This document shows positions 18,096-35,972 of a stretch of 64,000 nt of DNA, piece after piece. The translations under genes were made by a program, and so were the position numbers. Source of the stretch: a virus (taxonomy: Duplodnaviria > Caudoviricetes); IMG/VR virus record IMGVR_UViG_2915650412_000004, positions 11,383 through 75,382 of that record; one strand, given 5' to 3'. Every line of letters starts with the position of its first letter. Positions within the stretch are counted from its first letter, which is position 1. The notes under the pieces are model-generated. The model saw nothing but the letters and a program-made list of their open reading frames with translations, made no database searches and had not been told where the DNA came from.

Positions 18096-19950
18096 TATGC
18101 CTGCGCTTGAGCGTGTGAGCGCTTATGCGCAAGCCGTCATTGATGGCAGAGAAGTTGCCGGCCCTCACGTTCGTAATGCCTGCCGCCGCCATTTCGACGA
18201 TCTCGAACACGGTCACGAGCGCGGCCTGTATTGGGATGACGACGCAGCCGACCGCGTGTTTCGGTTCTTTGAAGGGCGTCTCAAGCTTTCTGAAGGTCAG
18301 TTTGAAGGCAAGCCATTCAAGCTGCACGCCTCACAGGCTTTCAAGCTGGGTTCTCTCTTTGGCTGGAAACGTGCCGACGGTTCGCGCCGTTTTAGGCGCG
18401 CCTACATCGAGGAGGGCAAGGGTAATGGCAAGTCTCCGTTTGCTGGCGGTGTCGGTCTGTACGGGCTGATCGCGGACAAGGAAGCTGGCGCGCAGATTTA
18501 TGCCGCCGCTGCCAAGAAAGAACAGGCTGGGATTCTGTTTCAGGACGCCGTGAAAATGGTTCGCGCGGCTCCGGCGCTGGTCGAACGACTGAAGTTCAGC
18601 GGCGGTATCGGGCGCGAGTTCAATATCGCGCATCACAAGTCGCAATCGTTTTTTCGCCCGATCTCGAAGGATTCCGGCAAGTCTGGCTCTGGTCCGCGAC
18701 CGCATTTTGCGCTCTGCGACGAGGTGCACGAGCATCCCGACCGCTCGACGATGGAAATGCTTGAGCGCGGCTTTAAGTTTCGTCGTCAGCCGCTGCTGCT
18801 GATGATTACGAACTCGGGCAGCGACAGAAACAGCATTTGCTGGGAAGAACACGAGCATGCCGTCAAGGTAGCTGCTGGTACGCAAACGCCAGATGACGAT
18901 TTTACCTATGTCGGCGAGGTGATCGACGACACGACATTTTCCTATGTCTGCGCGCTGGACAAGGGCGACCATCCGCTCAAGGACGAAACCTGCTGGAAGA
19001 AGGCTAACCCGCTTCTGGGCGTTATCTTGACGCAGGAATATCTGGCCGGCGTTGTTGCTCAGGCAAAGCAGATGCCGGGCAAGCTGAACGGCATTCTTCG
19101 GCTGCACTTCTGCTGCTGGACCGATGCCGACAAGGCATGGATGCCGCGCGAGACCGTCGAAAGCGTAATGGACGATTTCGATCCTGAAGTCGAACACGCT
19201 GACAAACCCGTTTTCATGGGCGTCGACCTGTCCGGTAGCAAGGATATGACTGTGCTCGCGTGCGTTGTTCCTACTGGCTTCAAGGAAATGGAGCGGGAAG
19301 ACGGATCTACCGTCAATCTGCCGACGTTTGATGCGTGGGTGGAGGCTTGGACGCCAGCTGATACGCTGGAAGCGCGAGAACAGGCTGACAAGGCGCCATA
19401 TGCGCTTTGGGTAAAACAGGGGTGGTTGAATGCTCCGCCCGGCAAGCGAATTAGATATGATTTCGTGGCATCGCGGGTCCAGCAACTCGATCAGGCGTTC
19501 GATATCAAGGCCATCGCCTATGACCGCTATGCCTACGACAAGTTCCGCGAGGAAGTCGAAGCGCTCGGGTTGGACATTGAACATGTCGCGCACCCACAGG
19601 GCGGCAAGGTTCGGGCTCGGCCTGAGCCTGCGAAGGTAGAGGCTGCAAAAGCCGCTGGCTTACCGCCGCCGCAAGGCTTGTGGATGCCGGGCTCGGTTCT
19701 GGCGCTCGAAGACATGATCATCGACGGTCGCATTCGCATGCGCCGCAGTCCGGTGCTTATGACCGCCCTGATGGGTGCCACCTTCGATCATGACCCGCAA
19801 GATAACCGGTGGTTCGTGAAGACGAAGGCGTCAGTGCGCATCGACGCTGCTGTCGCTTTGGCAATGGCGGTTGGTGTGGCGATGGATACACCGATCGAGC
19901 CAGCCGACATCGACGACTTCGTCAACAACATGATCACTATAATTTACTAA
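18079..19950 (+). CDS. terL: Terminase large subunit; C-terminus supplied by the satellite att junction
   Basis: EGKGNGKS Walker A, CDEVHEH Walker B, GVDLSGSKD, RIDAAVA. Confidence 0.95.
   Translation: MICLTDMPALERVSAYAQAVIDGREVAGPHVRNACRRHFDDLEHGHERGLYWDDDAADRVFRFFEGRLKLSEGQFEGKPFKLHASQAFKLGSLFGWKRADGSRRFRRAYIEEGKGNGKSPFAGGVGLYGLIADKEAGAQIYAAAAKKEQAGILFQDAVKMVRAAPALVERLKFSGGIGREFNIAHHKSQSFFRPISKDSGKSGSGPRPHFALCDEVHEHPDRSTMEMLERGFKFRRQPLLLMITNSGSDRNSICWEEHEHAVKVAAGTQTPDDDFTYVGEVIDDTTFSYVCALDKGDHPLKDETCWKKANPLLGVILTQEYLAGVVAQAKQMPGKLNGILRLHFCCWTDADKAWMPRETVESVMDDFDPEVEHADKPVFMGVDLSGSKDMTVLACVVPTGFKEMEREDGSTVNLPTFDAWVEAWTPADTLEAREQADKAPYALWVKQGWLNAPPGKRIRYDFVASRVQQLDQAFDIKAIAYDRYAYDKFREEVEALGLDIEHVAHPQGGKVRARPEPAKVEAAKAAGLPPPQGLWMPGSVLALEDMIIDGRIRMRRSPVLMTALMGATFDHDPQDNRWFVKTKASVRIDAAVALAMAVGVAMDTPIEPADIDDFVNNMITIIY
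19922..19942 (+). repeat. Left att junction TCAACAACATGATCACtATAA
   Basis: 16-bp exact match plus ATAA, shared with 35952-35972. Confidence 0.9.
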
Positions 19951-19978
19951 GCTTAAAACTAGTAAGAAAATCAAATAG

Positions 19979-20004
19979 ATAGGCCCTTGGGTGGGCCTAT
20001 TTAT
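19979..20004 (+). terminator. Terminator-like hairpin immediately after terL
   Basis: ATAGGCCC-ttgggt-GGGCCTAT then TTAT. Confidence 0.55.
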
Positions 20005-20037
20005 AGCTAAAAGCCGCCGCTATGTATTCATTCGTAA

Positions 20038-20100
20038 AATCAATGGTTTAGCGTGAATTATCGAGAATTGACGGCTTCTCGATGCGACATTGATGCGACA
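20038..20100 (+). promoter_or_regulatory. IHF site and arm-type integrase site
   Basis: AATCAATGGTTTA matches WATCAANNNNTTR; GCGACA-N5-GCGACA at 20084-20100 is mirrored at 35904-35920. Confidence 0.55.
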
Positions 20101-20113
20101 AGAAAGGAAGCAC

Positions 20114-20320
20114 ATGGAACAGGAAAAAGAAGGGGCCGACCTGCTCTATGGCGTCCCTGCAATTGCAACGTTCCTCCGTATGAGTGAGCCCGCAGTTTAT
20201 CATTTATCCCGTCGTGCTGATTGGCCCGGATTCAAGATCGGCGGCAAGGTCTGCGCTCGCCGCTCAGCAATTGACCAGTGGATTTCCGACATGGAAGCAA
20301 AGGCGAGGTCAACACAATGA
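20114..20320 (+). CDS. Excisionase/AlpA-like HTH protein (satellite)
   Basis: ADLLYGVPAIATFL...FKIGGKVCARRSAIDQW; paralog of 34532-34735. Confidence 0.8.
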   Translation: MEQEKEGADLLYGVPAIATFLRMSEPAVYHLSRRADWPGFKIGGKVCARRSAIDQWISDMEAKARSTQ

Positions 20321-20412
20321 GCGTGGCGTTTCTGCTCGGCTACATGCTGATCTTCGGCGGTGCCATTGTTGGGCCGCGTCTGATGACGCAGGCAGGAAGC
20401 GCCGGGAAGTGA
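20317..20412 (+). CDS. 31-aa hydrophobic peptide
   Basis: MSVAFLLGYMLIFGGAIVGP..., fills the gap with ATGA coupling. Confidence 0.45.
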   Translation: MSVAFLLGYMLIFGGAIVGPRLMTQAGSAGK

Positions 20413-20413
20413 A

Positions 20414-21604
20414 ATGAAGCGCAAGCACGACATACCGGCATGGCGGCAGCAACAATTGGTCAGGCTGGCCTTACGCCATTCTGAGACAACTAAGGCTGAC
20501 TGCGCCGTCCTTGCGGAGATCGTGCAGCGATACCATGGCGAGTACGGCAACGGCTGGGCCAGCTTCGATATGCTCATTGAAGAGACTGGCCTGCATAAGA
20601 CCACAATCATCAAGGCAAAACGCAAGCTTGAACGGCTCGGCTTTGTTTCCGTCCTGTCACCGGGACGCAGGGGCCGCTCAACGGTCTACTTGCCGAATTT
20701 TGATTTAGTTCCCGAAAAAGGTAGTGCACAGACTACCGAAACAAAGGGTAGCGTAGACGCTACCGTAATTGATGGTTTGGGTAGTCAGGACGCTACCGAA
20801 TATGGCGCTTTAGGTAGCGTGGACGCTACCACCTCCTACTTACAGTTACCGGTTTACAAAACCGGTATACTGGAAAGTAATATTGACCCTGCTGCGCCGC
20901 CCATGGCTGGCCTTACGGCCGCCAGTGCAGGCGCGCATGGGGAAGGGAAATTCGACCAGCTATATAAAGCGTATGGCCACAGGCGGGGCAGGGCGGATGC
21001 TCGCAAGGCATATGAAGCCCTTGCACTGACCGACGAGGCACATGCCGACATATTGGCCGCCGCTGAGGCATGGCGTCAGGCATGGGCGAGGCAGGGTAAT
21101 CCTGATGCGCCACGCTTCACGCTCGCGAAGTGGCTGGAGCGCGAATGCTACCACGAAGACCCGCCGACCGGCTTTAAGTCCAAAGAGCCGAAGAAACCGA
21201 AATCGGAAAGTTTGCCTACCCGGAATGCGGCGACGGTAAGCCAGTCCGAAACGCCAGCGCCTGGTGAAGAATATGGCGCTATCGATGTTTGCGCGTTCAC
21301 TCCTACCGGCACCTTCGAGGCCGAGATAATCGGCAGCGATGTCATTGCTACCGGGAACGAAGTCGTGTTGCGGCTGAATCTTCAACTGTCTGACGGGAAA
21401 GGAACACCTCTCGGTGAGACAGCCCATGAATTTTTCGTGCAGGCGAATGAGAAATCCAAACAAGATCGCGGGCAGGCATTCCTTACACAAGTCGCAGAGG
21501 CAGTCGGCTTGAGGGCTCTTGAAGATTCGAGCGATTTTCACGGCAAGCGGTGCCGGGTCACGATCAATAACCGGCGAGAAATCACCTACCACAACACGAG
21601 GTAA
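20414..21604 (+). CDS. Satellite replication initiator: N-terminal wHTH, C-terminal DUF669-like domain
   Basis: WASFDMLIEETGLHKTTIIKAKRKLERLGF HTH; internal iterons; C-terminus resembles 333-884. Confidence 0.75.
   Translation: MKRKHDIPAWRQQQLVRLALRHSETTKADCAVLAEIVQRYHGEYGNGWASFDMLIEETGLHKTTIIKAKRKLERLGFVSVLSPGRRGRSTVYLPNFDLVPEKGSAQTTETKGSVDATVIDGLGSQDATEYGALGSVDATTSYLQLPVYKTGILESNIDPAAPPMAGLTAASAGAHGEGKFDQLYKAYGHRRGRADARKAYEALALTDEAHADILAAAEAWRQAWARQGNPDAPRFTLAKWLERECYHEDPPTGFKSKEPKKPKSESLPTRNAATVSQSETPAPGEEYGAIDVCAFTPTGTFEAEIIGSDVIATGNEVVLRLNLQLSDGKGTPLGETAHEFFVQANEKSKQDRGQAFLTQVAEAVGLRALEDSSDFHGKRCRVTINNRREITYHNTR
20720..20830. repeat. Four GGTAG-N8-CTACC iterons (satellite origin)
   Basis: 20720-20737, 20747-20764, 20780-20797, 20813-20830. 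Confidence 0.8.
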
Positions 21605-21606
21605 AT

Positions 21607-21858
21607 ATGGCGAATGACTTTTATGACGATGCAGTAGACGAACCAGAAGCCGCGGCACCGGTCCAGCATTTCACCTGCATGATCCAGATCGAGCCGTTTG
21701 ACGCTGAAACCGAAGACGATGAAAAGCTGCGCGTTGTCGGCATTGTGCAAGGCACAGACGATGAAACTTTTGATTTCATCGCGATCAAAACCCTCGAAAA
21801 TGGCGAGATGTACCCGACCCGTGAAGCCACGGTTTGGTCTGTTTCCCAAAAATCCTAA
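21607..21858 (+). CDS. Acidic hypothetical protein
   Basis: ACACGAGGTA RBS, coupled to rep. Confidence 0.65.
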   Translation: MANDFYDDAVDEPEAAAPVQHFTCMIQIEPFDAETEDDEKLRVVGIVQGTDDETFDFIAIKTLENGEMYPTREATVWSVSQKS

Positions 21859-21860
21859 TC

Positions 21861-21960
21861 ACAGATCGTCGTAGCGCCTGCTGTGGTGGCGGGCACCTAT
21901 TTGCTGCGACAGATCCCCCGCCCGGTCTCTCCTCCTCGTGTGCCGGGCGGGGGCGGTTTC
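21861..21960 (+). ncRNA. Candidate structured sRNA in the tRNA leader; loop antisense to the helper RBS motif
   Basis: Stem-loop ~21864-21914 and perfect 11-bp stem 21915-21925/21943-21953 with loop UCUCUCCUCCUCGUGUG. Confidence 0.55.
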
Positions 21961-22034
21961 TCGGCCTTCGCCTAACGGTAGGGCAGCGCACTTTGAATGC
22001 GCCGGTACTGGTTCGATCCCAGTAGGCCGATCCA
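21961..22034 (+). tRNA. tRNA-Gln(TTG) (satellite)
   Basis: Acceptor TCGGCCT/AGGCCGA, anticodon arm GCGCA-CTTTGAA-TGCGC, T arm ACTGG-TTCGATC-CCAGT, CCA. Confidence 0.9.
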
Positions 22035-22061
22035 TTTTTTCAAATACGGAGGCTATCGCCC

Positions 22062-22211: not shown

Positions 22212-22278
22212 CGACCAAAAGCGCACCGCGCTTATTTCACCCACCAATTCCCAATTCTGCAAAATAGGAGGCGTCCCG

Positions 22279-23083: not shown

Positions 23084-24175
23084 ATGACAAATCTCGCAAC
23101 TATGATTTCCGATCTGGGCAATGAATTCAAAGCCAGCACCGGCGACCTTTCCTCCCGCATCAGCGAGCTCGAAAAGCGTGCGGCTCGCGAGCCTTCCGGT
23201 GATATGCTCTATGCAAATGGCGAAACTATCGCCGACAAGATGGTAGAATCCGCAGCCTTCAAGTCGCTGGAGGGTGGTCGCGTCCGTGGCCGTGCGCACG
23301 TCGAAATGGCGGCCATCACTTCCGGCAACACTACCGTTGGCACTGGTCGCTCCGCAGCTACTTCGCTGGTGGGTGCTGATCGCCGCCCTGGCATTGTTAC
23401 ACCTGCCGAGCGCGTCCTGACCGTCCGTGACCTTATCGCTCCGGGCGAAACCAGCGCGGGCTCAATCGAATACGTGAAGGAAACGGGCTTTACCAATAAT
23501 GCCGCTCCCGTCGCTGAAACGACGCAGAAGCCTTACTCCGATCTGACATTCGATCTGGTGACGGCACCGGTCCGCACGATTGCGCACCTTTTCAAACTGT
23601 CAAAGCAGATCATGGACGATGCGCCCGGTCTCGTCAGTTATGTGAACGTGCGCGGTACGTCGGGCCTGAAGCTCAAGGAAGAGAACCAGCTTCTCTTCGG
23701 CGACGGTACAGGTCAGAACCTTTTGGGCCTGATTCCACAGGCAACCGTATTCGATGACGCGCTACGCTCCACGGGCGACACCCGCGTTGACACTCTGCGC
23801 CGTGCTATCCAGCAGGTACGCCGTGCCGAATACCGCGCATCCGGCATCATCATGAACCCGGACGACCTCGCCGACCTTGAACTGACCAAGGACGCCGGCG
23901 GCAACTACATTATTGTCGATCCCGTTGAAGGCGGTCAGGGCCGAGTGTGGCGTCTGCCTATCGTGGACACCACTGCAATGCCAGCGGGTCAGTTCCTCGT
24001 TGGTGCGCTCGATACGGCTGCCCAACTTTTCGACCGTCAACAGGTGATCTTCGAAATCTCGACTGAGAACGCCGACGATTTCGAAAAGAATATGGCGACT
24101 GCTCGTATCGAAGAGCGCCTGGCTCTTGCCGTGTATCGTCCGGAAAGCATCGTTACCGGCCAGTTCGAAGCCTAA
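23084..24175 (+). CDS. Satellite major capsid protein (HK97 fold)
   Basis: Colinear similarity to helper MCP (ITSGNTTVG, EYVKETGFTN, GDGTGQNL, IEERLALAVYRPE). Confidence 0.95.
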   Translation: MTNLATMISDLGNEFKASTGDLSSRISELEKRAAREPSGDMLYANGETIADKMVESAAFKSLEGGRVRGRAHVEMAAITSGNTTVGTGRSAATSLVGADRRPGIVTPAERVLTVRDLIAPGETSAGSIEYVKETGFTNNAAPVAETTQKPYSDLTFDLVTAPVRTIAHLFKLSKQIMDDAPGLVSYVNVRGTSGLKLKEENQLLFGDGTGQNLLGLIPQATVFDDALRSTGDTRVDTLRRAIQQVRRAEYRASGIIMNPDDLADLELTKDAGGNYIIVDPVEGGQGRVWRLPIVDTTAMPAGQFLVGALDTAAQLFDRQQVIFEISTENADDFEKNMATARIEERLALAVYRPESIVTGQFEA

Positions 24176-24549: not shown

Positions 24550-24766
24550 GGTCCTCTTTTTCCACAATGGCTACGGCTTCATCGCTGCCGAGCCTTGCAA
24601 CGTTTTCTTCCATCGCGCTGCCGTCGATGGCGATGTGCCAAAGGCTGGCGATATGGTCCGCTACGATGCCATGCCAAGTGGCAGGAGTAGCCCTAAGGCG
24701 AACAGCGTTCGCGTCATCGACCAGGACGTCTTGGCCGAAGCTGAGCGGGTGTTTGGGTCGCAATGA
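24536..24766 (+). CDS. Cold-shock domain protein 2
   Basis: MATGKVLFFHNGYGFI...VFFHRAAV. Confidence 0.85.
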   Translation: MATGKVLFFHNGYGFIAAEPCNVFFHRAAVDGDVPKAGDMVRYDAMPSGRSSPKANSVRVIDQDVLAEAERVFGSQ

Positions 24767-25059
24767 GTAGAGGTGAAAGCGCAGCTTGGCAGCACCTTTA
24801 TAAGCGGTCGAGATGGATCAAGATGCGTGAGCGACATCTGATGCAGTCGCCCTTGTGCGTTTATTGCCTTGAGGTTGGCAACGTGGAGCCTGCCACGATT
24901 TGTGATCATCGCACCCCGCATAGAGGGAGCGAGGATCTCTTCTGGGACGCTGACAATCTCATGTCCCTTTGCAAGCCCTGTCATGATCGGATCAAGCAGC
25001 GCGAAGAACGCGGAGAGAAGGTCATTCGATTTGGCGCGGACGGATACCCCATCGAGTGA
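24763..25059 (+). CDS. Satellite packaging HNH endonuclease
   Basis: PLCVYC...DHRTPHRG...LMSLCKPCH; homolog of 17310-17600. Confidence 0.9.
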   Translation: MSRGESAAWQHLYKRSRWIKMRERHLMQSPLCVYCLEVGNVEPATICDHRTPHRGSEDLFWDADNLMSLCKPCHDRIKQREERGEKVIRFGADGYPIE

Positions 25060-25135
25060 CCACCCACCCATAAGGGGGGCAATCGAAGTCTGGAAGCCGC
25101 TCGCTCTAGGAGCGGCCCGGACCCACAACGCATAC
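25057..25135 (+). promoter_or_regulatory. Probable satellite cos/packaging region
   Basis: Between HNH and terS; aligns with helper 17598-17670. Confidence 0.5.
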
Positions 25136-25172
25136 ACGTGCTGCCCCGGTTCAAATAAAAATTGGAGGCTCA

Positions 25173-25529
25173 ATGCCCAAAAACCCCACAAATTCAGCGG
25201 TCAAACCGCCAAAACACCTGCGAAAACCAACGCAAAATTGGTTCAAATCTGTAATAGACGACTTCGATTTGGAGCCTCATCATATCAAATTGCTAACTCT
25301 TGCTGCTGATGCGTGGGATCGGGCGGTCTCTGCGCGCGAAGTAATCGACGCGGATGGGATGACTTACACCGACCGTTTCGGGCAGCCGAAGCCACGCCCA
25401 GAAGTCGCAATCGAGCGTGACTCCCGCATCGGCTTCACCCGCCTTATTCGCGAGCTTGCTTTGGATGGCGTGGATGCTCCAGAAACGCCGCGCCCACCGC
25501 GCACTGCCGACTACGGGAATAGGCGCTGA
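25173..25529 (+). CDS. terS: Satellite terminase small subunit (P27-like)
   Basis: PPKHL...W...GQPKPRPEV.IE......RLIRELAL. Confidence 0.8.
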   Translation: MPKNPTNSAVKPPKHLRKPTQNWFKSVIDDFDLEPHHIKLLTLAADAWDRAVSAREVIDADGMTYTDRFGQPKPRPEVAIERDSRIGFTRLIRELALDGVDAPETPRPPRTADYGNRR

Positions 25530-26039: not shown

Positions 26040-26063
26040 GCCCGCCGTTGAGCGGGCTTTTTT
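26040..26063 (+). terminator. Intrinsic terminator
   Basis: GCCCGC-cgttga-GCGGGC then T6. Confidence 0.7.
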
Positions 26064-26076: not shown

Positions 26077-26445
26077 ATGTCCGATAAGCCTTTTTCACAG
26101 ATTACGCAGCCATTTGGCGACGGCGAATATAACTTCGCGCTGACTTGGGATGGCGCGATTGAGTGGGAAGAAAAAACGAGCCGTAGCCTTTATGGCACCT
26201 TCAAATTTATGGCCGAACATCAAAGTGGATTGGTTGCCGATGTGCGCGAAATTATCCGCATCGCATTAGTCGGTGGCGGACTGGCTCCGATACGGGCTCT
26301 GTCGCTGGTCAAGCGATATGTGGAGGGGCGTCCGCTTGATGAAAGCCTACCCGTCGCACTGAGCGCAATCGAGGCTTTCCTTTTCGGTCCCGACGATAAA
26401 TCCGGCGACACCGCCAAGACGGGAGAAGTCCCAGCCGATGGCTAA
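26077..26445 (+). CDS. Satellite tail assembly chaperone (GTA gp10-like)
   Basis: FGDGEYNFALTW...VREIIRIALVGGGL.P..A..LVKRYVE; homolog of 43374-43814. Confidence 0.8.
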   Translation: MSDKPFSQITQPFGDGEYNFALTWDGAIEWEEKTSRSLYGTFKFMAEHQSGLVADVREIIRIALVGGGLAPIRALSLVKRYVEGRPLDESLPVALSAIEAFLFGPDDKSGDTAKTGEVPADG

Positions 26446-26878
26446 GAAATGGCACGCATCGGCAGCGTTCAAAAAGAGGCTGGCGAAGCTGCCGGCATCT
26501 GTTCTCAAAAGGACCAATGAGGCCATCAAGAAGAACGCCGAGGAATGGGTGGACTGGGCGCAGAAGATGGCCCCGGAAGACCCGAAAGACGGCATTCATC
26601 TGAGGCCTTCGATCCGCAATTACGAATCTGAAACCGGCGGCCAGGTGGTTCGTGCAGGTGGCGAGGCGACAACCGTGAACGGTTACGATTATGCCCTTGG
26701 CGTCGAGTTTGGAACCGCGCCTCACATCGCAGGCGGTCAATTCGAAGGTGCGCATCATCCGGGTACGTCAGGGCAGCCGTTCTTTTGGCCCTCATATCGA
26801 ATGCTGCGAAAGCGAATGTCTGGTCGTCGCCGACGCGCACTGAATCAAGCCGTGAAGGATTTCAACGATGGCAAGTGA
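26438..26878 (+). CDS. Satellite HK97 gp10-like tail completion protein
   Basis: YALGVEFGT...QPFFWPS; homolog of 41147-41614. Confidence 0.8.
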   Translation: MAKKWHASAAFKKRLAKLPASVLKRTNEAIKKNAEEWVDWAQKMAPEDPKDGIHLRPSIRNYESETGGQVVRAGGEATTVNGYDYALGVEFGTAPHIAGGQFEGAHHPGTSGQPFFWPSYRMLRKRMSGRRRRALNQAVKDFNDGK

Positions 26879-29084
26879 ACCCGCCCTCTATGCTCGTATG
26901 GAAATGCGCGTGAAAGATGCCGAGAAGCAACTGGCGAAGTTCAGTCAGCGACTCGACCAATCGGCCGGCAGCATGGAGCGGCGATGGAGCCGTGCCTCCA
27001 AAAACATGCAGACGTCAATGTCAAAGGCATTCGGCGGCAGCAGTTTGGCGAAGGGCATTTTTGCGGGCGTTTCGGCTGCGGGCGCAAAAGAACTGATTGA
27101 CGCCGCTATCCGTATCGAGAATGCGTTGAAAGTGGCCGGCCTGTCTGGCCAGCAATTGAATGACGTATATGACCGCCTGTTTCAGAGTGCGACCAAAAAC
27201 GCAGCGCCACTTGAAACACTGGTCACGCTGTACGGCCGCGTTTCCTTGGTCCAAAAGAACCTCGGTGCATCGACCGAAGATCTTTTGAAATTCACCGATA
27301 GTATCGCCATGGCGCTACGGGTGGCAGGCACTAGCCCGGAACAGGCCAGCGGCGCTTTGCTCCAGCTTTCGCAGGCTCTCGGCAGCGGGACGGTGAGAGC
27401 AGAAGAATTCAATTCTATGATGGAAGGCGGTTTGCCGATCCTTCAAGCCGCGGCAGCGGGCATCAAAGAGGCTGGCGGCGATGTCGCGAAGTTGCGCAAC
27501 ATCATGCTGGACGGTGAATTATCTTCAAAGGCGCTCTTCAAAGGCATTGAGGCCGGAACGCCCATTCTGGAAGAGCGGCTCGCGGGCGCTGTTCTGACAA
27601 TTGATCAGCGCATGACGAATCTGAAAACGGCGCTGGTCGATGCGGCGAAGCGCTTTAATAACTCGACGGAGGCAGCCAATACCTTCGGCACCGCCATCGA
27701 CAATACCGCTGCGTTTATCAACAATATCAACTTTGAGACGTTCATCTCCAAGATAAATCAGGTTGTGGAGGCTTTTGCCAGAGGCCAGGCGGCTGCCAAT
27801 AACTTTGCCAATGACGTTGGCGCGGCTCTCGGTCTGGATAATATCGGCAAGTTGCTAACCGGCGGCGAAGCGCAGAAGAGCTTCCTTGGTGGTGCGTTGA
27901 CGATTACGTCATCGAAAGTTATTCAAGACCGCATTACCGATGCATTCAAGGGCGGTGCAGTCGAGGGCAGTGCCGAAATGGACAAGGTTCTGCGCGAGAA
28001 GTACGGGAAAGGCGCCCGCCTTAAGCCAGAAAGTACAAACCCCGGCACCACTGCGCAATTCACCCCAGTATCCATCAAGGATTTCCCCGCAGACGGTGCC
28101 GGCAAGGATAAGAAGAAGAAAAGCGGCAGCAAAACCCACGCCAAAACCGCTGACCAGCAGATCGATAGCGACATTCAGTCGGTCCGCGATCGAATTGCAG
28201 CGATGCAGCTTGAAACGCAGCTTGTAGGCAAGTCGTATCAGGAGCAGGAAAAGCGGCGTATGTCGCTGGAGCTGGAGCAGGCAGCACTCGCCAAGCTTCG
28301 TGACGAGGCGATCAAGAAAGGTCAGACTGACCTTTCGAATATCAAGATTTCAGAAGAAACACGCGGCAAGATTGACGCTGTGTCCGAGGCTTATGCAAGG
28401 CAAGCAGAAGAACTTCGCCGAGTTCAAGACCAGCAAGACCGAGCAGAGCAGGCGGCAGACGATTTCTACGATACGTTCAAAAGCAGCACGGTGGGCGCAA
28501 TTACCGGCGCTAATAGCCTTGCCGACGCATTGCAGAACATTGCGAATAAGCTGGCAGACCTCTTCTTGAGTGCAGGTTTCGATGCCTTGTTTAAGCCATC
28601 TTCTGGCGGGGTCGGAGGCGGTGCCTTCGGAAGTATATTCAGCGGGCTGGGCAAGCTCATCGGCTTTGACAGCGGCGGCTACACGGGCCCCGGTGGCGTT
28701 AAGCAGCCAGCAGGCGTCGTTCACAAAGGTGAGGTCGTATGGTCCCAAGATGACATTCGCCGCGCCGGAGGCGTCGGTAAGGTCGAAGCCATGCGTCGCG
28801 GCCTTGCTGGTTACGAGCGGGGCGGGGCGGTGAGTATGCCTTCACTATCGGCACCGCGTATGCCCGACCTTTCGCGCATCACGAACAACAGTAATAGCAC
28901 GGTCAACAGCGCGCCTGTGATTAACGTGACTGTGAATGGGGCTACTGGCGATAAGGAAATTGAGGCTCGCGCTTTCTCTGGCGCCCAGAGAGCGATCATG
29001 CAGTGGCAAAAAACGCCGTATTTCGCCCAAGCCGTTGCTGGCGGCGTTAAACAGGCAAATAAGCGCGGGATGCTACCCCGCTAA
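26868..29084 (+). CDS. Satellite tape measure protein (738 aa)
   Basis: LLQLSQALGSGTVRAEEFNS tape-measure domain; GFDSGGYTG...AGVVHKGE motif. Confidence 0.9.
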   Translation: MASEPALYARMEMRVKDAEKQLAKFSQRLDQSAGSMERRWSRASKNMQTSMSKAFGGSSLAKGIFAGVSAAGAKELIDAAIRIENALKVAGLSGQQLNDVYDRLFQSATKNAAPLETLVTLYGRVSLVQKNLGASTEDLLKFTDSIAMALRVAGTSPEQASGALLQLSQALGSGTVRAEEFNSMMEGGLPILQAAAAGIKEAGGDVAKLRNIMLDGELSSKALFKGIEAGTPILEERLAGAVLTIDQRMTNLKTALVDAAKRFNNSTEAANTFGTAIDNTAAFINNINFETFISKINQVVEAFARGQAAANNFANDVGAALGLDNIGKLLTGGEAQKSFLGGALTITSSKVIQDRITDAFKGGAVEGSAEMDKVLREKYGKGARLKPESTNPGTTAQFTPVSIKDFPADGAGKDKKKKSGSKTHAKTADQQIDSDIQSVRDRIAAMQLETQLVGKSYQEQEKRRMSLELEQAALAKLRDEAIKKGQTDLSNIKISEETRGKIDAVSEAYARQAEELRRVQDQQDRAEQAADDFYDTFKSSTVGAITGANSLADALQNIANKLADLFLSAGFDALFKPSSGGVGGGAFGSIFSGLGKLIGFDSGGYTGPGGVKQPAGVVHKGEVVWSQDDIRRAGGVGKVEAMRRGLAGYERGGAVSMPSLSAPRMPDLSRITNNSNSTVNSAPVINVTVNGATGDKEIEARAFSGAQRAIMQWQKTPYFAQAVAGGVKQANKRGMLPR

Positions 29085-29334: not shown

Positions 29335-29529
29335 ATGGCAGTTATCTCAAGCGCGTTCGGTCAGGTGAAATTGACCGATGACGACGCTAAGAAGTTTCGT
29401 AATCAGGTGACATTCGGTAAACCAAAAGCAGCCGCACATGAGACTGTCAAGAAAGGGCGCGAGCTCTTCAAGGAGTTTCAGGGCAAGGGTAAAGTGAAGT
29501 TTACCGTCAAGGCAGCCACGGGGGAATAG
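29335..29529 (+). CDS. Putative antitoxin resembling the toxin-binding half of DUF1778 (AtaR/TacA) antitoxins
   Basis: VKLTDDDAKKF...KPKAA; directly upstream of GNAT. Confidence 0.55.
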   Translation: MAVISSAFGQVKLTDDDAKKFRNQVTFGKPKAAAHETVKKGRELFKEFQGKGKVKFTVKAATGE

Positions 29530-30060
29530 TTGCCGAACGACGAATTCGAAGTTGAACTAAGACTGATAGAGCCCAGTGATAAAGTCACTGGGCTTTCTCT
29601 TGGCAGTGAGGAGTTCACGCCGCTGAAGATGTTTATTCAGCGGAAAGCCAAGGATTATCAGGTCAATAGTTTTGCCAGGACTTATGGTCTGTTTGGCCCT
29701 GAGGCGAAACTGATCGGTTATATCACGCTCATCTGCGGCGAGATCCTGACAAAGACGCCCCAGGACGTGATTCCGCCAGAACAGATCTACGACTACAAAA
29801 CATTTCCATCTGTGAAGATTGCCCGCCTTGCCGTCGACAGACGATATCAGGGCAAGGGACTGGGCGATTATCTGGTTTCTTTTGCGATAGGTGTTGTCAA
29901 GGACGCGATTGCGCCTCACGTCGGTTGTCGTTTCGTCGTTGTTGATTCGAAACAGTCAGCGGTGAGGTTTTATGAGCGTCTCGGCTTCACGCTGCTTGAT
30001 ACAGCTACGAACAGGGCCAACGAACAGCCGGTGATGTATCTCGACATCCTTAAAGCCTGA
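29530..30060 (+). CDS. GNAT acetyltransferase toxin (AtaT/TacT-like)
   Basis: IARLAVDRRYQGKGLG, VGCRFVVVDSK..AVRFYERLGF. Confidence 0.85.
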   Translation: MPNDEFEVELRLIEPSDKVTGLSLGSEEFTPLKMFIQRKAKDYQVNSFARTYGLFGPEAKLIGYITLICGEILTKTPQDVIPPEQIYDYKTFPSVKIARLAVDRRYQGKGLGDYLVSFAIGVVKDAIAPHVGCRFVVVDSKQSAVRFYERLGFTLLDTATNRANEQPVMYLDILKA

Positions 30061-30243
30061 TTAGCGTTGATTTCTCAATGATGCGTTCCTGAGCGCCCGT
30101 CGTAGGGCGTTTCACCCGGGATTCCTGTGAACATCCCCTAGCATCAGGGCGGCGCGGGTTGTGCAGGTGGTCCCTTCCAATCATTCTACCTTGGGGCGAG
30201 ACAGGGAGATAAATGCAACCTAACTCACCAAAGCGAGATCACC

Positions 30244-30474
30244 ATGAATACCATTCCTTACACCGCGTCTCTTTCCTGCGGCACTTGCGGCACAAAGGGC
30301 GTTCGAATTGACGACGATGCGGACGAAAATTCCATCGTTAGATGTAAGAATCCCGACTGCGACACAACTTTCGGCACTTGGGGAGATGTCCGAAAAATGG
30401 TTCGCGAAAAAACGGCGAAGAAAGCCAAGGATGACATCGTTGCATCGCTGAGAAAATCTCTGCGGAAGAGATGA
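30244..30474 (+). CDS. Small Zn-ribbon protein
   Basis: CGTC...CKNPDC, basic tail. Confidence 0.6.
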   Translation: MNTIPYTASLSCGTCGTKGVRIDDDADENSIVRCKNPDCDTTFGTWGDVRKMVREKTAKKAKDDIVASLRKSLRKR

Positions 30475-30548
30475 CGTGCGGCGCCCTTCGGGGCGTCTCA
30501 ACGTCAACTATAGATTGATTATTCCACCGAGAACAATTATTCAACCTC

Positions 30549-31727
30549 TTGGTGGAGGGGCTTGTGAAAAAACTAACAATTCGTTATCGGCGCCGGCTTT
30601 TATATTGGGCTAACAAAAGGTCGCGCAAGAAAAACTCAGGCACGGCCAAATTTGGTTATGTTCTGAGCGCAGATAGATTCGACCAAGTAAGGCTACCGTC
30701 AAACGCGATACAGATGCCGAAAGTGTTTTGTTTAGTGCAAAACACCGAACAAACGCTGTCGTTTCTGGAAAAAACGAGGCAGCGGTTGCTTGCCCCCCCA
30801 TTGTCTGGAACGAGGTCTCTCGCGGCACATGTAACTGGGAAAAGGAAAAATAAATCCGCGCCGCGATGGATAGGCCCTTATGTTGACTTTACAACCATAG
30901 AATTCATCAGCCCAGCCGCGGCTCTGGTGCTTGCTGCGGAATATCACAGGGCTGTTCTACTGAAAGAACAGAGCACGAAGAATATTTCTCGGCTGTTCTT
31001 GGTCGACGTTCATAAATGGAAGGCAAATGTAATAGAGAGCTTGATTGAAGTAGGATTCTTTGAGCTTTTGAAAATCACTGAAGGTGTACAGGCGCCAGAA
31101 GAGGGGGACCGGAAAATTCTAAAACTTCGCAGTGGCAGTCGAAATCAAGCTGATGAAGTGGATGGATTGCTCAATAGTATTGAGGAAATGTTCAGTGGTG
31201 TAGGTTTGAACGCCAACGATGCGTGCTTTGAACTTAACGGCGCATTGGGCGAGGCAATGGAGAATGCAGTCCGTTGTGCCTATCCAACTGAAATTTCTTT
31301 TGGCCGACCTCATGTTTCAAAGTGGTGGATGACAGGATCACTTTCGAAGGCTCAGCGTCAAATGACTGTGGCGATATATGATCAGGGAGTATCTATACCA
31401 GGTTCGCTTAGTAGTTGGCAGCTTTACGGTGGATTCCTAAACCGATTTCTAAGGAAGTTCGGTATGGCAAGAGATAGCGCCGACCCCAGATTTGATGGAG
31501 ATGTCATCGCACTGGCAATCGATGAATCTGTTACGTCTACGGGATTGCAAAAACATGGTAAGGGTTTGGGTCATATAAAGGCTTTTATCGATTCCTGTAG
31601 CGCTGGCAGTCTGTTAATTATAAGTAGGCAGGGAATGTATATATATGAAAAAGGGAAGCCGCCTCTCACGTACAATTTACCGATAAGATTATCAGGTACA
31701 TTGATCCAGTGGAACGTTGTAATTTAA
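30549..31727 (+). CDS. STAS-like plus GHKL (HATPase_c) kinase/ATPase
   Basis: VDFTTIEFISP (STAS-like); EAMENA N-box, DQGVSIP G1, GKGLG G2; start uncertain. Confidence 0.75.
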   Translation: MVEGLVKKLTIRYRRRLLYWANKRSRKKNSGTAKFGYVLSADRFDQVRLPSNAIQMPKVFCLVQNTEQTLSFLEKTRQRLLAPPLSGTRSLAAHVTGKRKNKSAPRWIGPYVDFTTIEFISPAAALVLAAEYHRAVLLKEQSTKNISRLFLVDVHKWKANVIESLIEVGFFELLKITEGVQAPEEGDRKILKLRSGSRNQADEVDGLLNSIEEMFSGVGLNANDACFELNGALGEAMENAVRCAYPTEISFGRPHVSKWWMTGSLSKAQRQMTVAIYDQGVSIPGSLSSWQLYGGFLNRFLRKFGMARDSADPRFDGDVIALAIDESVTSTGLQKHGKGLGHIKAFIDSCSAGSLLIISRQGMYIYEKGKPPLTYNLPIRLSGTLIQWNVVI

Positions 31728-31757
31728 TGGGAGTTAACCTTTAGAAGGTTAAATCAA

Positions 31758-32120
31758 ATGAGCTTGAGAGTCATCGAAGTGCTGGATATTGGAAGAGATT
31801 TTACACTGACGCCTGGTGCTCGGTATAAAAAGCATGGAGATTTTTCTGGCGAAGAATTTCGAACTAAACTTCTGGCTCCTGCTTTGCGGCGTGTAATCAA
31901 TGCCGACGGGGTTCTGAATGTTGTCATTGATACTGTGAAAAGAAGCTATCTGGTTTCTTTTTTAGACGAAGCTTTTGGCGGTTTAATAAGAGACGAAGGC
32001 TTTTCTCTAGAGCAAACAAATCAGCATTTAAATATTGTAAGCTCGAATAAGCGATTCGAGAAATATAGAATACTAGCAAAAAACTATATTCTCCGGGCAT
32101 CTGAAGAGCATGCCAAGTAA
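31758..32120 (+). CDS. Stand-alone STAS-like (DUF4325-type) protein
   Basis: PGARY...SGEEFR...SFLDEAFGGL. Confidence 0.8.
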   Translation: MSLRVIEVLDIGRDFTLTPGARYKKHGDFSGEEFRTKLLAPALRRVINADGVLNVVIDTVKRSYLVSFLDEAFGGLIRDEGFSLEQTNQHLNIVSSNKRFEKYRILAKNYILRASEEHAK

Positions 32121-32595
32121 CATTAGCCCAATTTTGCCAATTGTTAGTTTGCTGAGCGCATTTATAGGAGCCGCCGCTGCACTCTTTGGTCACCGCTGGC
32201 GTTACCGTGCAGATTACCGAAATCATTTGGTTACACAACTTATCACCACAATTACCAATGTTGCGGATCTTTCAACCGATTATTGGCTCATGGAAATACA
32301 TTCTCCAAGCTCTGCTAACGCATTGGAGCAAGCTAAGATCGAGGCAAAAATAGAAGGCTTGGTCGAAAAACTGGACGGCAGTATTGAAATAGTTCGACCG
32401 CACTTGAGCAAAATTGATATGTTGGGAATTGATATTCCTGCATCTAGGTTTGTTGATGCCTTAACCGGTGGTCAGTTCTCTGTGCCAGCTCGTGCTCAAG
32501 ATGCTGAACGTGCAAAAGAGGCACAGGCAGCTGCGGCCTTCTTGATATTGGAGATATCTAAAGCTGCGAATCGTCGAGTACTTGGCATTATGTAG
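32110..32595 (+). CDS. Membrane-anchored hypothetical protein
   Basis: N-terminal TM helix, overlaps the STAS gene. Confidence 0.7.
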   Translation: MPSNISPILPIVSLLSAFIGAAAALFGHRWRYRADYRNHLVTQLITTITNVADLSTDYWLMEIHSPSSANALEQAKIEAKIEGLVEKLDGSIEIVRPHLSKIDMLGIDIPASRFVDALTGGQFSVPARAQDAERAKEAQAAAAFLILEISKAANRRVLGIM

Positions 32596-32721
32596 AAGTT
32601 AATATTGGAAATTCTAGTACTAACTTTAGATAGGCTTTAACCAACACGGTATTACTGACTTGTGCTCTTAAAGCATTCCAGTTCCAACCGATTGCGGAAT
32701 TCAGCTATCGCGGTCATGAAG

Positions 32722-33078
32722 CTACATCGATATGTCGTTAAGCTGCCAGCTATTACCTTCAGGCATATAAGTCACGTCAGCGCGGTATTGAGTTCTCAAT
32801 TTCGCTCCGAACGAGTTTTCAGCATCCACGTAGGCATTTACGGTGTATTTGCACCTATCGCGCTCAACCACGCTCACACCGTCAGAATTCGTGCCCCATG
32901 GGAATGAGGCTGTGGCGGGTGCTTTGAGGCGCTTCTTTACGAATTCCTGAGAGATCACGAAGGCCATGGTCTTTGAACCACATGCGTTCGGGTCTTTTCT
33001 CTTATTCACCTCGCTATACAACCACGCTGCACCGATAATTGTGGCCAGGACTACGATTGCCTTACGTCTTTGCCCCAT
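32722..33078 (-). CDS. Membrane-anchored exported protein
   Basis: N-terminal TM; VDAENSFGA...Y. Confidence 0.7.
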   Translation of the reverse strand: MGQRRKAIVVLATIIGAAWLYSEVNKRKDPNACGSKTMAFVISQEFVKKRLKAPATASFPWGTNSDGVSVVERDRCKYTVNAYVDAENSFGAKLRTQYRADVTYMPEGNSWQLNDISM

Positions 33079-33178
33079 GAAATCCCCCGGTTGAACGGGC
33101 TTTCCATAGCATAGGCAAGCCTTGCCCCGAAAGGGGAGACTTTAACTTGAATTTTACGATGATTTCGGTAAGGGTATT

Positions 33179-33480
33179 CGCGGAGCCTGAGAACTCCCGA
33201 AGCCGTCCCTTGCCGGGGATGGGCTTCATCCGCGATAGGAACAGATCAGCCTTGCCGGGCATGATGTGTTCCGAATTACGACGCGCCCCTTTGCCGTGGG
33301 CGTGACCGGCACACTATTGCCGGGAGTGCCACGGTGCGTCAAGAGGAATCTTGACCTCAATAAAGAAGGCCATGGCGCATGTTCTCGCGGACATGTTCTC
33401 AGACTCCCGGCGCCAGTGCTGATCACTGGTTCACCCGACACGAAAGCCCTGAGAAGCGGACGTGTTCGGTTTTACCGCGA
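33179..33480 (+). promoter_or_regulatory. Structured leader with mutually complementary segments (c4/CI-like riboregulator candidate)
   Basis: CTGAGAA at ~33187 and ~33449 vs TTCTCAG ~33396; ACTCCCG ~33193 and ~33403 vs CGGGAGT ~33321; outer CGCGGA/TCCGCG stem. Confidence 0.35.
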
Positions 33481-33487
33481 GACCACA

Positions 33488-33757
33488 ATGATTCACCCAG
33501 ATATTGCGCCTGCCATGAGTGCGGGCATTTTCCTACAATTCGTCAGGCGAAGCATCGCGGACGAAATTGAGCGCTTGATTTCCATCCTAGATCAGATCGA
33601 CGGCGACGCCGATCTAGAACCGTCATTGGGCGAATACAGCCCGTTCGGCGTGGATGTTGAATGCGACAATAGCGACCTTGAACCAGATGAAGAGGGCGGC
33701 TTTGACGAAGAGCCATACGACGGCTTTGCCCGCGAGTATTGGGAGGCGCGGGCATGA
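33488..33757 (+). CDS. Acidic hypothetical protein
   Basis: ATG 33488; IERLISILDQIDGDADLEPSLG. Confidence 0.6.
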   Translation: MIHPDIAPAMSAGIFLQFVRRSIADEIERLISILDQIDGDADLEPSLGEYSPFGVDVECDNSDLEPDEEGGFDEEPYDGFAREYWEARA

Positions 33758-33990
33758 GCAGCGTCCACAAAGACAGCAATAGGATTGTGATAGACGGCTA
33801 CAACAGTCTGACAGCGGCTATATTCAGCGAAGATCGAATTTGTATCGAGGTCGATGACGAATCGGCTGGTGATACAGAAACGGGCTTTGGTGCGACAGCC
33901 CGCATTTATCTTTCGCCAGACGAAGCCATTGAACTTGGTTCTTGGTTGATTCAGGCGGGGACGACTGCCGGTAAAGGCGGTGCAGCATGA
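33754..33990 (+). CDS. Hypothetical protein
   Basis: GGGAGG RBS, ATGA coupling. Confidence 0.6.
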   Translation: MSSVHKDSNRIVIDGYNSLTAAIFSEDRICIEVDDESAGDTETGFGATARIYLSPDEAIELGSWLIQAGTTAGKGGAA

Positions 33991-34433
33991 CCGACCTTTG
34001 CCAACTGGAAGCAGCCCTTCACGACATTCGCCGATCAAACCAGATCATGGAAGTCCTGATCGAAAGCGTCTCAAGTAATGTCAAGGCGCTGATGTCGGTA
34101 GCGAATCTCCCTGCCGGGATTACGGCTGACGATAGACTGCTCGAATTTGAGATCAATCGTCAGAGCAGGCATTGTGCCGACGCTGAAACGATCCTCGCAG
34201 GAATGCAGAAGCGTGAACCCGAAACCGCGGCGAATGTGTTCCTCCTCAATTTGAAGCGCACCGACCTACAGGACGGCACCGAAATCATTCTCGCCGGGAA
34301 GCCGCATACCATATCGCGTTCCTTGATAGGTCCCGATTGGTGGGATTGTCGTCAGGACGGCGAACTCATGGCGTCATTCCCCGCCAGACACCTGTTGAAA
34401 CATGCATGGGTGCAGGGTGCCAAGCGTCACTGA
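33987..34433 (+). CDS. Hypothetical protein
   Basis: ATGA coupling in operon. Confidence 0.6.
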   Translation: MTDLCQLEAALHDIRRSNQIMEVLIESVSSNVKALMSVANLPAGITADDRLLEFEINRQSRHCADAETILAGMQKREPETAANVFLLNLKRTDLQDGTEIILAGKPHTISRSLIGPDWWDCRQDGELMASFPARHLLKHAWVQGAKRH

Positions 34434-34531
34434 CAGGGAAATCATTGCCCTTGCTATCCTGATCGGCGTTGTTCTCGCCGGTCAGGGCTTCAACGGAACA
34501 GAACACCTCATTTTACCTTGAAGGAGAGAAC

Positions 34532-34735
34532 ATGACACACGGGGAAGATAAAGCCGACCTGCTTTATGGGGCGCGGCCTATCGCGGATTTTCTAGGAATG
34601 ACCGAGAAGCAGGCACGTCACAGGATTGATGACGGGCATATTCCAACTTTCCGCATTGGCGGCACGATCTGCTCAAGGAAGAGCACCCTGACAAAGTGGC
34701 TAGATGAAATGGAAGCGCAGGAGGCGCGGAAATAA
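34532..34735 (+). CDS. Excisionase-like HTH protein
   Basis: ADLLYGARPIADFL...FRIGGTICSRKSTL; coupled to integrase (TAATG). Confidence 0.8.
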   Translation: MTHGEDKADLLYGARPIADFLGMTEKQARHRIDDGHIPTFRIGGTICSRKSTLTKWLDEMEAQEARK

Positions 34736-35931
34736 TGGCGAGCGTTCGAAAACGCGAGTGGGAATACAACGGCGCTAAAAAAACAGCGTGGGTGGTAAAT
34801 TACACCGATCTGGACGGAAAGCGCCGACTGAAGACATTCGAGAAGAAGAAAGACGCAGATGCTTATCGAGCCAAGGTCGAGGTCGAAGTTGAAGCCGGTT
34901 TGCATACCCCGGCGAGTTCCAAGCGCACAGTCAAGCAGGTTGCCGAGGAATACATCAAGAACTTGGAGTCGCGGTTGGCCGATGGCCGCATCAGCCTCGG
35001 ATATCTGAAATGCTCAAAAAGCCGCATCGACAAGCATGTGGTGCCGTTTTTTGGACAGCGGATGTTCGATGAACTGAGCTTAGCGGACTTTGAGGGCTTC
35101 TATGATCACCTCGTTACCAAGGCCGGCAATGCGCCGTTCACAGCGAAAGAAATAATTGCACAGGTAGCCACTATGGAGAAATTCGCAGCTAAGCGCACGA
35201 TTCCGACGAAATATGCTGCACGAGAAATGGTCGAAGAATTACGCGGGGTCAAAAGAGGAAAGATTGATACCTTCACCCGCGAACAGGCTATCGCCATTCT
35301 TGAAGCTTCTAAGGTGCGCGAACGGCACCGACAAGCGCGCAATCAAAAGCTTATAGAACTCATGGTGCATTTAGCCGCCATATGCGGCATGAGGCTTGGC
35401 GAAATCACTGGATTGAAATTGCCCCACGTTAATCTGGAACGGCGGGTGCTAGAGGTCCGGCACAGTATGCAGCCGAATGGTGAGTTGAAAGCCCCCAAAA
35501 CCAAATCCGGTATACGTGATATACCGATGCCAGACGCAATCCACACCATGTTCAAAGAATGGCTGGAACGTTACTATATCCAAAATGACCGGGAGCTTGT
35601 TTTCCTGACCTATAACGGCGGCCCTATGCATCGTCTCGATATCCACCGGCAATGGGTTGATTTGCTCAAGCGGTCGGGCGTGGGTGAAAATGGTCCGTCA
35701 GGAACACGATATCATTTTCATGCCCTTCGCCATTTTGCTGCCAGCTGGATGGTCGATAACAATCTGCCGGTTACTGATGTGGCTCATATTTTAGGGCACA
35801 GCAAGTTCGATATGACCCTACAAGTTTACGCGCATCCATTGCGTGACCAGCGGGAGCGTCACAATGCAATGCAGAATCTTGCTGCCGGATTGCAGCCGTC
35901 GGCGCGACAAGAGAGCGACAAAGCCGCTTAA
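34735..35931 (+). CDS. int: Tyrosine recombinase/integrase (satellite)
   Basis: GMRLGEI, KTKSG, HALRH, LGHS...T...Y catalytic residues. Confidence 0.95.
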   Translation: MASVRKREWEYNGAKKTAWVVNYTDLDGKRRLKTFEKKKDADAYRAKVEVEVEAGLHTPASSKRTVKQVAEEYIKNLESRLADGRISLGYLKCSKSRIDKHVVPFFGQRMFDELSLADFEGFYDHLVTKAGNAPFTAKEIIAQVATMEKFAAKRTIPTKYAAREMVEELRGVKRGKIDTFTREQAIAILEASKVRERHRQARNQKLIELMVHLAAICGMRLGEITGLKLPHVNLERRVLEVRHSMQPNGELKAPKTKSGIRDIPMPDAIHTMFKEWLERYYIQNDRELVFLTYNGGPMHRLDIHRQWVDLLKRSGVGENGPSGTRYHFHALRHFAASWMVDNNLPVTDVAHILGHSKFDMTLQVYAHPLRDQRERHNAMQNLAAGLQPSARQESDKAA

Positions 35932-35951
35932 ATCGCTGATTTCATTGGCAC

Positions 35952-35972
35952 TCAACAACATGATCACCATAA
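35952..35972 (+). repeat. Right att junction TCAACAACATGATCACcATAA, followed by the original terL end (ACC TGG TAG)
   Basis: Repeat of 19922-19942; in-frame NNMITITW-stop then portal RBS. Confidence 0.9.

Follow-up and report, generated by a model that had tools for sequence, protein, structure and literature searches.

The 64,000-nucleotide stretch analysed here (positions 11,383 to 75,382 of virus record IMGVR_UViG_2915650412_000004 in IMG/VR, called the window below) carries a 16,030-bp element inserted in the last two codons of the large terminase gene, terL, of an HK97-like prophage. The element is very probably a helper-embedded satellite that entered through its own tyrosine integrase at a 21-bp site at the end of terL, its helper being a 62.4-kb prophage of the HNH/cos type at tRNA-SeC. 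A wider interpretation is considered probable, with clearly more reserve: an alphaproteobacterial integrase clade, unrelated to that of the helper-embedded phage-inducible chromosomal islands (HE-PICIs), independently evolved a tropism for late phage genes (two terL families, portal, ClpP/S78 proteases, capsid, and tail fibre) and gave rise to widespread embedded satellites of 9-16 kb with capsid and tail-chaperone/tape-measure modules. The member in the window would be non-disruptive and would gate its helper through the terL-portal split and through over-length for cos packaging, not through disruption of a gene.

The kind of system is already known. The preliminary description of this DNA treated the arrangement as new, yet it had been published in 2023 as HE-PICIs, with Eco567.11capE of E. 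coli NRG857c as founder (Tommasini, Mageeney & Williams 2023, NAR Genom Bioinform 5:lqad036, PMC10111431). Four things are new here: the integrase lineage is independent, the hosts belong to another class, the genes are ordered differently and include a tape-measure module, and the insertion is non-disruptive, with a replacement that mimics the TerL end.

The insertion site at the end of terL

The source genome is a draft of an alphaproteobacterium (28 contigs, 4.29 Mb). The element is bounded by a direct repeat at 19922 and 35952, whose 16-mer TCAACAACATGATCAC is exact at both positions and has no further copy in the genome (genome-wide search). The full repeat is 21 bp with one T/C mismatch (...CAC[T/C]ATAA). 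Exact repeats of at least 16 nt occur at five other site pairs in the window, and none of the five brackets an integrase. At the mismatch position attL has T, the attB type, and attR has C, so the crossover falls within the ATAA that follows the mismatch. The features of the insertion are as follows.

19922..19942, no strand: attL identity block (core), from repeat comparison and empty sites
35952..35972, no strand: attR identity block (core), from repeat comparison and empty sites
18010..19950, + strand: helper terL in the integrated state (Pfam TerL_ATPase and TerL_nuclease), ending NNMITIIY*
19975..20004, + strand: hairpin with a 12-bp stem in the satellite arm, directly 3' of the new terL stop (RNAfold -19.9 kcal/mol)
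34735..35931, + strand: tyrosine integrase of the satellite (Phage_integrase, PF00589, E 2e-28), just inside attR
35954..35980, + strand: displaced original terL tail NNMITITW*, overlapping the portal ribosome-binding site (GGAG)

The satellite arm gives terL its last two codons and its stop (ATT TAC TAA), turning ITW* into IIY*. Because the attP arm supplies I-Y-stop, TerL is full length in both the integrated and the empty state, while 16 kb of element DNA lies between terL and portal in the integrated state. The C-terminal tails of 120 TerL homologues follow the pattern [ND]NM[IV]x[IV]x[WAI], and the closest homologues end in NNMITITW, ENMITITW or NNMITVTW. Judged against this pattern, the T-to-I and W-to-Y changes with an immediate stop look conservative, and the replacement looks selected for TerL function. 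The true terL start probably lies downstream of 18010; TerL homologues have 617-631 aa.

Empty sites were found when the portal-side junction was searched against 400 genomes of the same family. Three match through the core, two from the same genus (L004, L005) and one from another genus (L006), and the empty junction reads ...GTCAACAACATGATCACTATAACCTGGTAGGAGTGCCCATGGGC in each. In L004 and L005, terL (94-98% nt identity) is directly continuous with portal (...ATGATCACTATAACCTGGTAGGAGTGCCCATGG) and TerL ends in NNMITITW*. The same arrangement of terL and portal exists in an isolated phage of Sinorhizobium, NV1.1.1 (64,155 bp), which contains the 16-mer and whose TerL ends in NNMITVTW*. Filled sites also exist elsewhere: a sediment metagenome contig (L047) carries an integrase 97% identical to that of the window with the same attR junction and represents an independent filled site. 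Logan contigs from three other sequencing runs have the empty-site ends CCTGGTAGG after 19942 and ACGACTTCG before 35952, with the empty form at higher depth than the satellite, and other Logan contigs bridge attL or attR.

These results bear out much of the preliminary description. It had reported direct repeats around an integrase element, TerL tails NNMITIIY* on the left and NNMITITW* before the portal ribosome-binding site on the right, and a terL that stays full length in both states with 16 kb separating it from portal; the tails are read in the sequence, and the two states are confirmed by the empty sites of relatives. It had also proposed a satellite whose attB lies in the helper phage, together with a search for homologous prophages with an empty site. 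L004, L005, L006 and phage NV1.1.1 are such forms, and the attB assignment is supported by them, by the filled site L047, by the Logan forms, and by the satellite-type gene set described below.

Two observations concern neighbouring forms of the site. In L006 (G020:C1, 1481-1521), an unrelated terL body is followed by the identical last 41 nt of terL and by the same portal and junction. This mosaic has its breakpoint just upstream of the satellite attB, which means that attB travels with the portal module. A second prophage of the same genome (G000:C23:227861-248713; TerL 77% identical) was considered as an empty site and rejected, as both its TerL tail and its portal differ.

The extent of the helper was determined by comparison with genomes of the same genus, in which the chromosomal backbone reaches a tRNA-SeC gene ~12.9 kb left of the window. 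The helper attL is the 3' end of tRNA-SeC at C28:14698, and the last 15 nt of this gene (CATTCTCTTCCGCCA) are repeated at the helper attR, C28:93108. Adjoining C28:93108, the minus strand has a 385-aa integrase-like open reading frame (ORF), recognised by its location and N-terminal sequence. Helper and satellite together measure 78,410 bp, of which 62,380 bp are helper, so the insert adds 25.7%, less than the excess of about a third over unit length that had been proposed.

Genes of the probable satellite and the expected course of excision

All annotated satellite genes lie on the + strand, co-oriented with terL and portal of the helper late operon. In the first half, an HTH_17 gene is followed by Rep, tRNA-Gln, two small ORFs, capsid, HNH, and TerS. 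The second half consists of TAC_11, gp10-like, tape measure, cargo, and a second HTH_17 gene, with the integrase last.

20084..20100, + strand: doubled motif GCGACA-N5-GCGACA, candidate arm-type site (P' arm), from a motif search
20090..20320, + strand: HTH_17 / AlpA-excisionase-like regulator (phrog_18541, phrog_66)
20414..21604, + strand: replication initiator Rep (HTH_36, phrog_270)
21961..22034, + strand: satellite tRNA-Gln(ttg) (ARAGORN; Rfam tRNA 61 bits)
23084..24175, + strand: satellite major capsid protein, HK97 type, 363 aa (Phage_capsid E 3e-58)
24763..25059, + strand: satellite HNH endonuclease (Pfam HNH, phrog_2323)
25057..25172, + strand: HNH-terS spacer, candidate cos region, resembling the helper spacer 17598-17708
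25173..25529, + strand: satellite small terminase TerS (Terminase_4)
26040..26057, + strand: strong intrinsic-terminator-like site (GC stem and TTTTTT; terminator scan)
26077..26445, + strand: Phage_TAC_11 tail chaperone/tube-like protein (profile match)
26438..26878, + strand: HK97 gp10-like tail-completion protein (profile match)
26868..29084, + strand: satellite tape measure protein, 738 aa (TMP_3 E 4e-48, phrog_17300)
29335..32595, + strand: cargo, comprising a small ORF and a GNAT acetyltransferase, an HATPase_c_2 protein, a DUF4325/STAS-like protein, and a 161-aa ORF (Pfam)
34469..34735, + strand: second HTH_17 / Xis-like gene adjoining int (phrog_18541)
35904..35920, + strand: doubled motif GCGACA-N5-GCGACA, candidate arm-type site (P arm), from a motif search

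Profile searches and tblastn found no TerL, portal, protease, tail tube or recognisable lysis genes in the element (19951-35951), which therefore cannot be autonomous and is most likely a satellite. It combines an integrase with replication and hijacking genes, as satellites generally do, without a full virion or lysis set and at 16.0 vs 62.4 kb. The embedded configuration is likewise present, with an att block in the late region, an uninterrupted attB in relatives, and co-orientation. The catalytic set of the integrase (R220/K255/H329/R332/H355/Y365) is invariant in an alignment of 40 sequences. The pattern GCGACA-N5-GCGACA matches twice in the window (0.15 expected by chance), both times on the + strand beside the att cores, ~32-48 bp left of the attR core and ~142 bp right of the attL core. 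The Pfam HTH_17 matches of the two putative excisionases are both under the gathering cut-off of 27 (E 3.8e-05 and 24.3 bits for 20090..20320; E 0.0024 and a weak 18.6 bits for 34469..34735).

The packaging genes of the satellite have counterparts in the helper. Helper genes run from a Prim-Pol/DUF3987 replication protein through tRNA-Met, HNH, a TerS candidate and TerL to portal, with the satellite between the last two; S49 protease, HK97-type capsid, tail genes, and an 805-aa tape measure follow.

17310..17600, + strand: helper HNH endonuclease, upstream of helper terS/terL (tblastn, 46% identical to the satellite HNH)
17709..18095, + strand: helper small terminase candidate, 128 aa, by position between HNH and terL
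35983..37227, + strand: helper portal (Phage_portal E 3e-96), ATG at 35989 being the likelier start
37237..39580, + strand: helper S49 prohead protease and major capsid protein (profile match)

Terminases associated with an HNH protein, as in HK97-like phages, are those of cos-type packagers, whose unit length is fixed. Global alignment of the satellite and helper HNH-terS spacers gives z ~5 against shuffles, a hint that the two might be a related cos region. The helper TerS candidate has no Pfam match, and pairwise comparison found no similarity between it and the satellite TerS, so the idea of a TerS shared by helper and satellite was rejected. The satellite capsid protein is 57% identical in amino acids and 70-75% in nucleotides to the helper capsid protein (418 aa), with a shorter N-terminal region.

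By analogy with known systems, and from this anatomy, it might be inferred that excision is tied to induction, that the late transcript is blocked, that TerS redirects packaging, and that small capsids are formed. On induction, the 78.4-kb composite would excise and replicate. The satellite would then excise through Int and an HTH_17 Xis/AlpA-like protein, possibly with the GCGACA doublets as arm sites, which would restore terL-portal coupling and return the helper to a packageable unit length. The excised satellite would be a 16,030-bp circle with the expected junction ...GGCACTCAACAACATGATCACCATAATTTACTAAGC..., replicating from its own Rep. Satellite TerS and HNH would direct helper TerL to the satellite cos-like site, and the capsid paralogue would favour small heads fitting 16 kb.

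The cargo region is AT-richer than the remaining satellite (GC 0.44-0.50). The Pfam match of the HATPase_c_2 protein reaches 27.0 bits, just under the cut-off of 27.4, and the cargo genes have no convincing PADLOC match (one borderline match, E 0.01). The trio at 30549-32595 (HATPase_c_2, DUF4325/STAS-like, 161-aa ORF) may be an uncharacterised defence or regulatory module. An NCBIfam search added nothing for Rep, HATPase or TerL.

In sequencing run X3, a joint that "goes back" was considered as a circle and rejected, being a swap between the two HTH_17 paralogues. In this copy of the satellite, the int-adjacent HTH_17 gene (34569-34715) is replaced by sequence like that of the first (20198-20302), from which it follows that the two paralogues exchange.

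The integrase clade and the alternatives

Close relatives of the integrase are few. Among 5.8 billion proteins searched, the L047 copy is the only one above 47% identity; none above 36% was found in the 400 genomes of the same family, and none above 29% in sequenced phages. A pattern scan of genome contigs with the single integrase gave no match; alignment-based scans of GTDB genomes and IMG/VR were productive and yielded ~100 loci. Clade hosts are Sphingomonas, Methylobacterium, Azospirillum, Xanthobacter, Devosia, Brucella/Ochrobactrum-like, and rhizobial bacteria.

The genes directly after the integrase stop, always co-oriented with it, are late phage genes (Pfam, PHROGs, tblastn). They include gpA-type terminases truncated at the N-terminus, with four or five different cut positions, and Terminase_1-type terL fragments, one of which, from Brucella pituitosa, encodes a TerL 90% identical to that of the window and cut at residue 174. 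The list also has capsid 3' stubs, one tail-fibre gene, and fragments of portal and of the ClpP and S78 proteases. Both halves of the split gene are seen in L189 (TerL 5-260 / 253-494), which has short repeats as well, and in L162 (portal 195-337 / 332-456). The elements of L048 (NCBI assembly) and L049 (Logan contig) are 10.3-10.5 kb and similar in plan, with HTH_17, protease/capsid, TAC_11, gp10-like, tape measure, cargo, and int last. They split terL, with an ATPase fragment upstream, a nuclease fragment, portal, protease, and capsid downstream, and short direct repeats of 11-12 bp at the junctions. Mapped relatives measure 9.4-10.5 kb; the left ends of L056 and L070 were attempted, and their short repeats are too weak for mapping.

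A tally was made over 63 non-redundant integrases at least 32% identical to that of the window and with enough flank. A co-oriented late gene lies at most 450 bp downstream in 35 and within 4.5 kb in 47, counts that are floors because the late-gene query set was limited; the loci were retrieved through the integrase itself, so 35/63 is no prevalence estimate. Below 32% identity, such a gene lies at most 450 bp downstream in 1 of 15, and several have the usual prophage-end, opposite-strand layout.

Two relatives are inserted ~30 codons before the stop of a helper capsid gene (L075:1140-1200 and 11224-11284; L056:1270-1340). Their cores (AACATGCTGAC; AATCTCGTGAC) resemble the terL core of the window (AACATGATCAC, 19922-19942), and all three encode N-M/L-x-T in a ...F-x-x-N-M-x-T tail. 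The clade may switch targets by way of such look-alike cores in other late genes, although with n=3 coincidence is possible. In one predicted prophage (IMGVR_UViG_2643221868_000001, 87,768 bp), two clade integrases (L129 and L173) are each followed by a capsid 3' stub. Two satellites embedded in one helper, or a tandem, could explain this record.

The TAC-tape-measure module recurs in L048, L049, L051, L056 and L179, which suggests that the satellite family may alter the helper tail or ejection apparatus.

Several points weigh against a helper-embedded satellite or against the wider claim for its clade. No excision product or satellite-sized packaged DNA is seen in the available data, which are assembled contigs from other samples. 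In the search of sequencing runs, the best run contains 0.39 of the probe words, and all matching entries are Logan contigs, with no RNA run listed among them. The Logan contigs of four runs from other samples contain no attP circle joint, and since contigs drop rare forms, the missing junction says nothing about excision. Since terL is undisrupted, the helper may depend less on excision than in HE-PICIs. The hairpin that the preliminary description had noted after terL as terminator-like is real (19975-20004) and terminator-like, but not a canonical terminator: it has no clean U-run on the + strand, and a consensus terminator scan called it on the - strand only. The cos-spacer likeness is modest, a tape-measure module is unusual among characterised satellites, and the 35/63 tally draws on the limits given above. 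Finally, prophage remnants are common, and decay could produce a satellite-like parts list.

This last point leads to a nested decaying prophage, a once-complete temperate phage that integrated by chance and lost its TerL, portal, tail, and lysis genes without exploiting any helper. Such an origin would account for the phage structural genes, including tape measure and tail-completion genes, but is unlikely, as relatives of the same clade are consistently 9.4-16 kb and share one reduced architecture, and the prophages whose late genes they occupy are of full size and come from many genera. In addition, the ORFs are intact and co-oriented, sequenced phages lack a near relative of the integrase, and the TerL-mimicking attP tail and the second filled sample (L047) argue for a maintained, site-specific lifestyle.

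A passenger island, i.e. a defence cassette or large moron that brings its own integrase and forms part of a 78-kb composite packaged as a unit, is very unlikely. The cargo (GNAT, HATPase/STAS pair) and the intact terL speak for it, but a passive passenger would not need its own Rep, TerS, HNH, and capsid. Empty-site helpers outnumber filled ones in three other samples. Related isolated phages do reach 64 kb, but with a fixed unit length the 26% over-length exceeds the packaging tolerance of lambda, which is roughly 10% (PMC10111431). Faulty assembly, or unrelated DNA that happens to lie between two repeats, might be suspected in a 28-contig draft but is extremely improbable, given an independent metagenome contig with the same attR, Logan contigs of other runs that bridge attL and attR, a 16-mer unique in the genome, and an insertion point exact against three empty sites.

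Relation to known systems and further features

HE-PICIs insert into late genes of lambdoid prophages and share their orientation. They occupy 14 sites in nine genes, including terminase, through one integrase clade, and occur in Enterobacterales only (PMC10111431). Within the paper library that was searched, no later paper was found to extend helper-embedded satellites beyond Enterobacterales. The satellite in the window likewise sits co-oriented in a late gene and operon of a helper prophage through its own tyrosine integrase, and belongs to an integrase clade with repeated late-gene tropism, including terL, portal, protease, and capsid. It also shares a capsid paralogue and a doubled short motif on both attP arms, which is GCGACA here and TGTATTGC in HE-PICIs, where the copies lie near -81 and +132 relative to the centre of attP. 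In HE-PICI experiments, composite excision, replication, and satellite excision follow one another (PMC10111431), and the same order would be expected here.

The differences are substantial. Hosts are Alphaproteobacteria, not Enterobacterales. The window integrase is 21% identical over 189 aa (28.9 bits) to the 11capE Int (NRG857c, L118), well below the 400 bits to that protein used as the lineage cut-off (PMC10111431); in the tree the 11capE Int is the single designated outgroup, on a branch of ~7 substitutions/site. In HE-PICIs and Gram-negative PICIs, int-alpA comes first, followed by a Bro zone, a primase replication zone, and a late zone, whereas the satellite in the window has int at the downstream end, an HTH_36 Rep instead of a primase, and its own TerS, HNH, and TAC/gp10/tape-measure module. 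HE-PICIs disrupt the target ORF with no replacement in attP (PMC10111431), and the clade relatives L048, L049 and L189 also split their ORF, unlike the satellite in the window, whose attP keeps terL whole.

Other satellites and excisable elements share single traits with it. Capsid-forming PICIs (cf-PICIs) integrate in the chromosome and also encode TerL, portal, protease, and head-tail connectors, taking only tails from the helper. The satellite in the window resembles them in its own HK97-type capsid protein, HNH, and TerS, but has no TerL, portal or protease, has a tape measure, and lies inside the helper. Its genome is small relative to the helper, with a ratio of 0.26 (16.0/62.4 kb) vs roughly 0.35 for P4/P2 and for SaPI1/80alpha, SaPIs being Staphylococcus aureus pathogenicity islands. 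Like SaPIs it has its own small terminase, and its capsid paralogue recalls SaPIbov5 Ccm as a capsid-related size determinant, redirection being presumed here. Unlike SaPIs and P4, with their chromosomal att sites and unrelated proteins and integrases, it uses a phage site. As with regulated gene integrity elements such as skin/sigK of B. subtilis and with phage regulatory switches such as the comK prophage of Listeria, excision at a defined time would restore a functional unit, but here that unit is an operon junction of another mobile element (terL-portal coupling and genome length) and not a host ORF that had been split.

If an unrelated clade does the same across many alphaproteobacterial hosts, late-operon embedding would be a general strategy of satellites, reached by convergence. 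In annotation, such composites will be missed or given a wrong size by prophage and satellite finders, a limitation that the authors of SatelliteFinder acknowledge (PMC10085698). The non-disruptive terL-end site is a natural contrast to the gene-splitting relatives, and this contrast bears on the purpose of embedding, be it excision timing, passive replication and late transcription, or a block of helper packaging. The conserved 16-bp site in the isolated Sinorhizobium phage suggests a tractable laboratory helper.

Some further features were recorded in the window and its source genome.

16928-17004: helper tRNA-Met(cat), just upstream of the packaging genes
44998-47415: helper tape measure (805 aa) region, compared with satellite 26077-29084

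Phage NV1.1.1 has a tRNA-Met at the equivalent place. Rfam gave two tRNAs and a sub-threshold GP20-b RNA match at the end of the satellite tape-measure gene (29030-29089; 27.6 bits vs a gathering score of 36.2), and no C4/isrK-type immunity RNA as in some PICIs. A third phage-like cluster of the same genome (G000:C1:582873-598668) contains int, portal, a capsid gene (product 52% identical to that of the satellite), TerL, and tape measure, in an unusual order.

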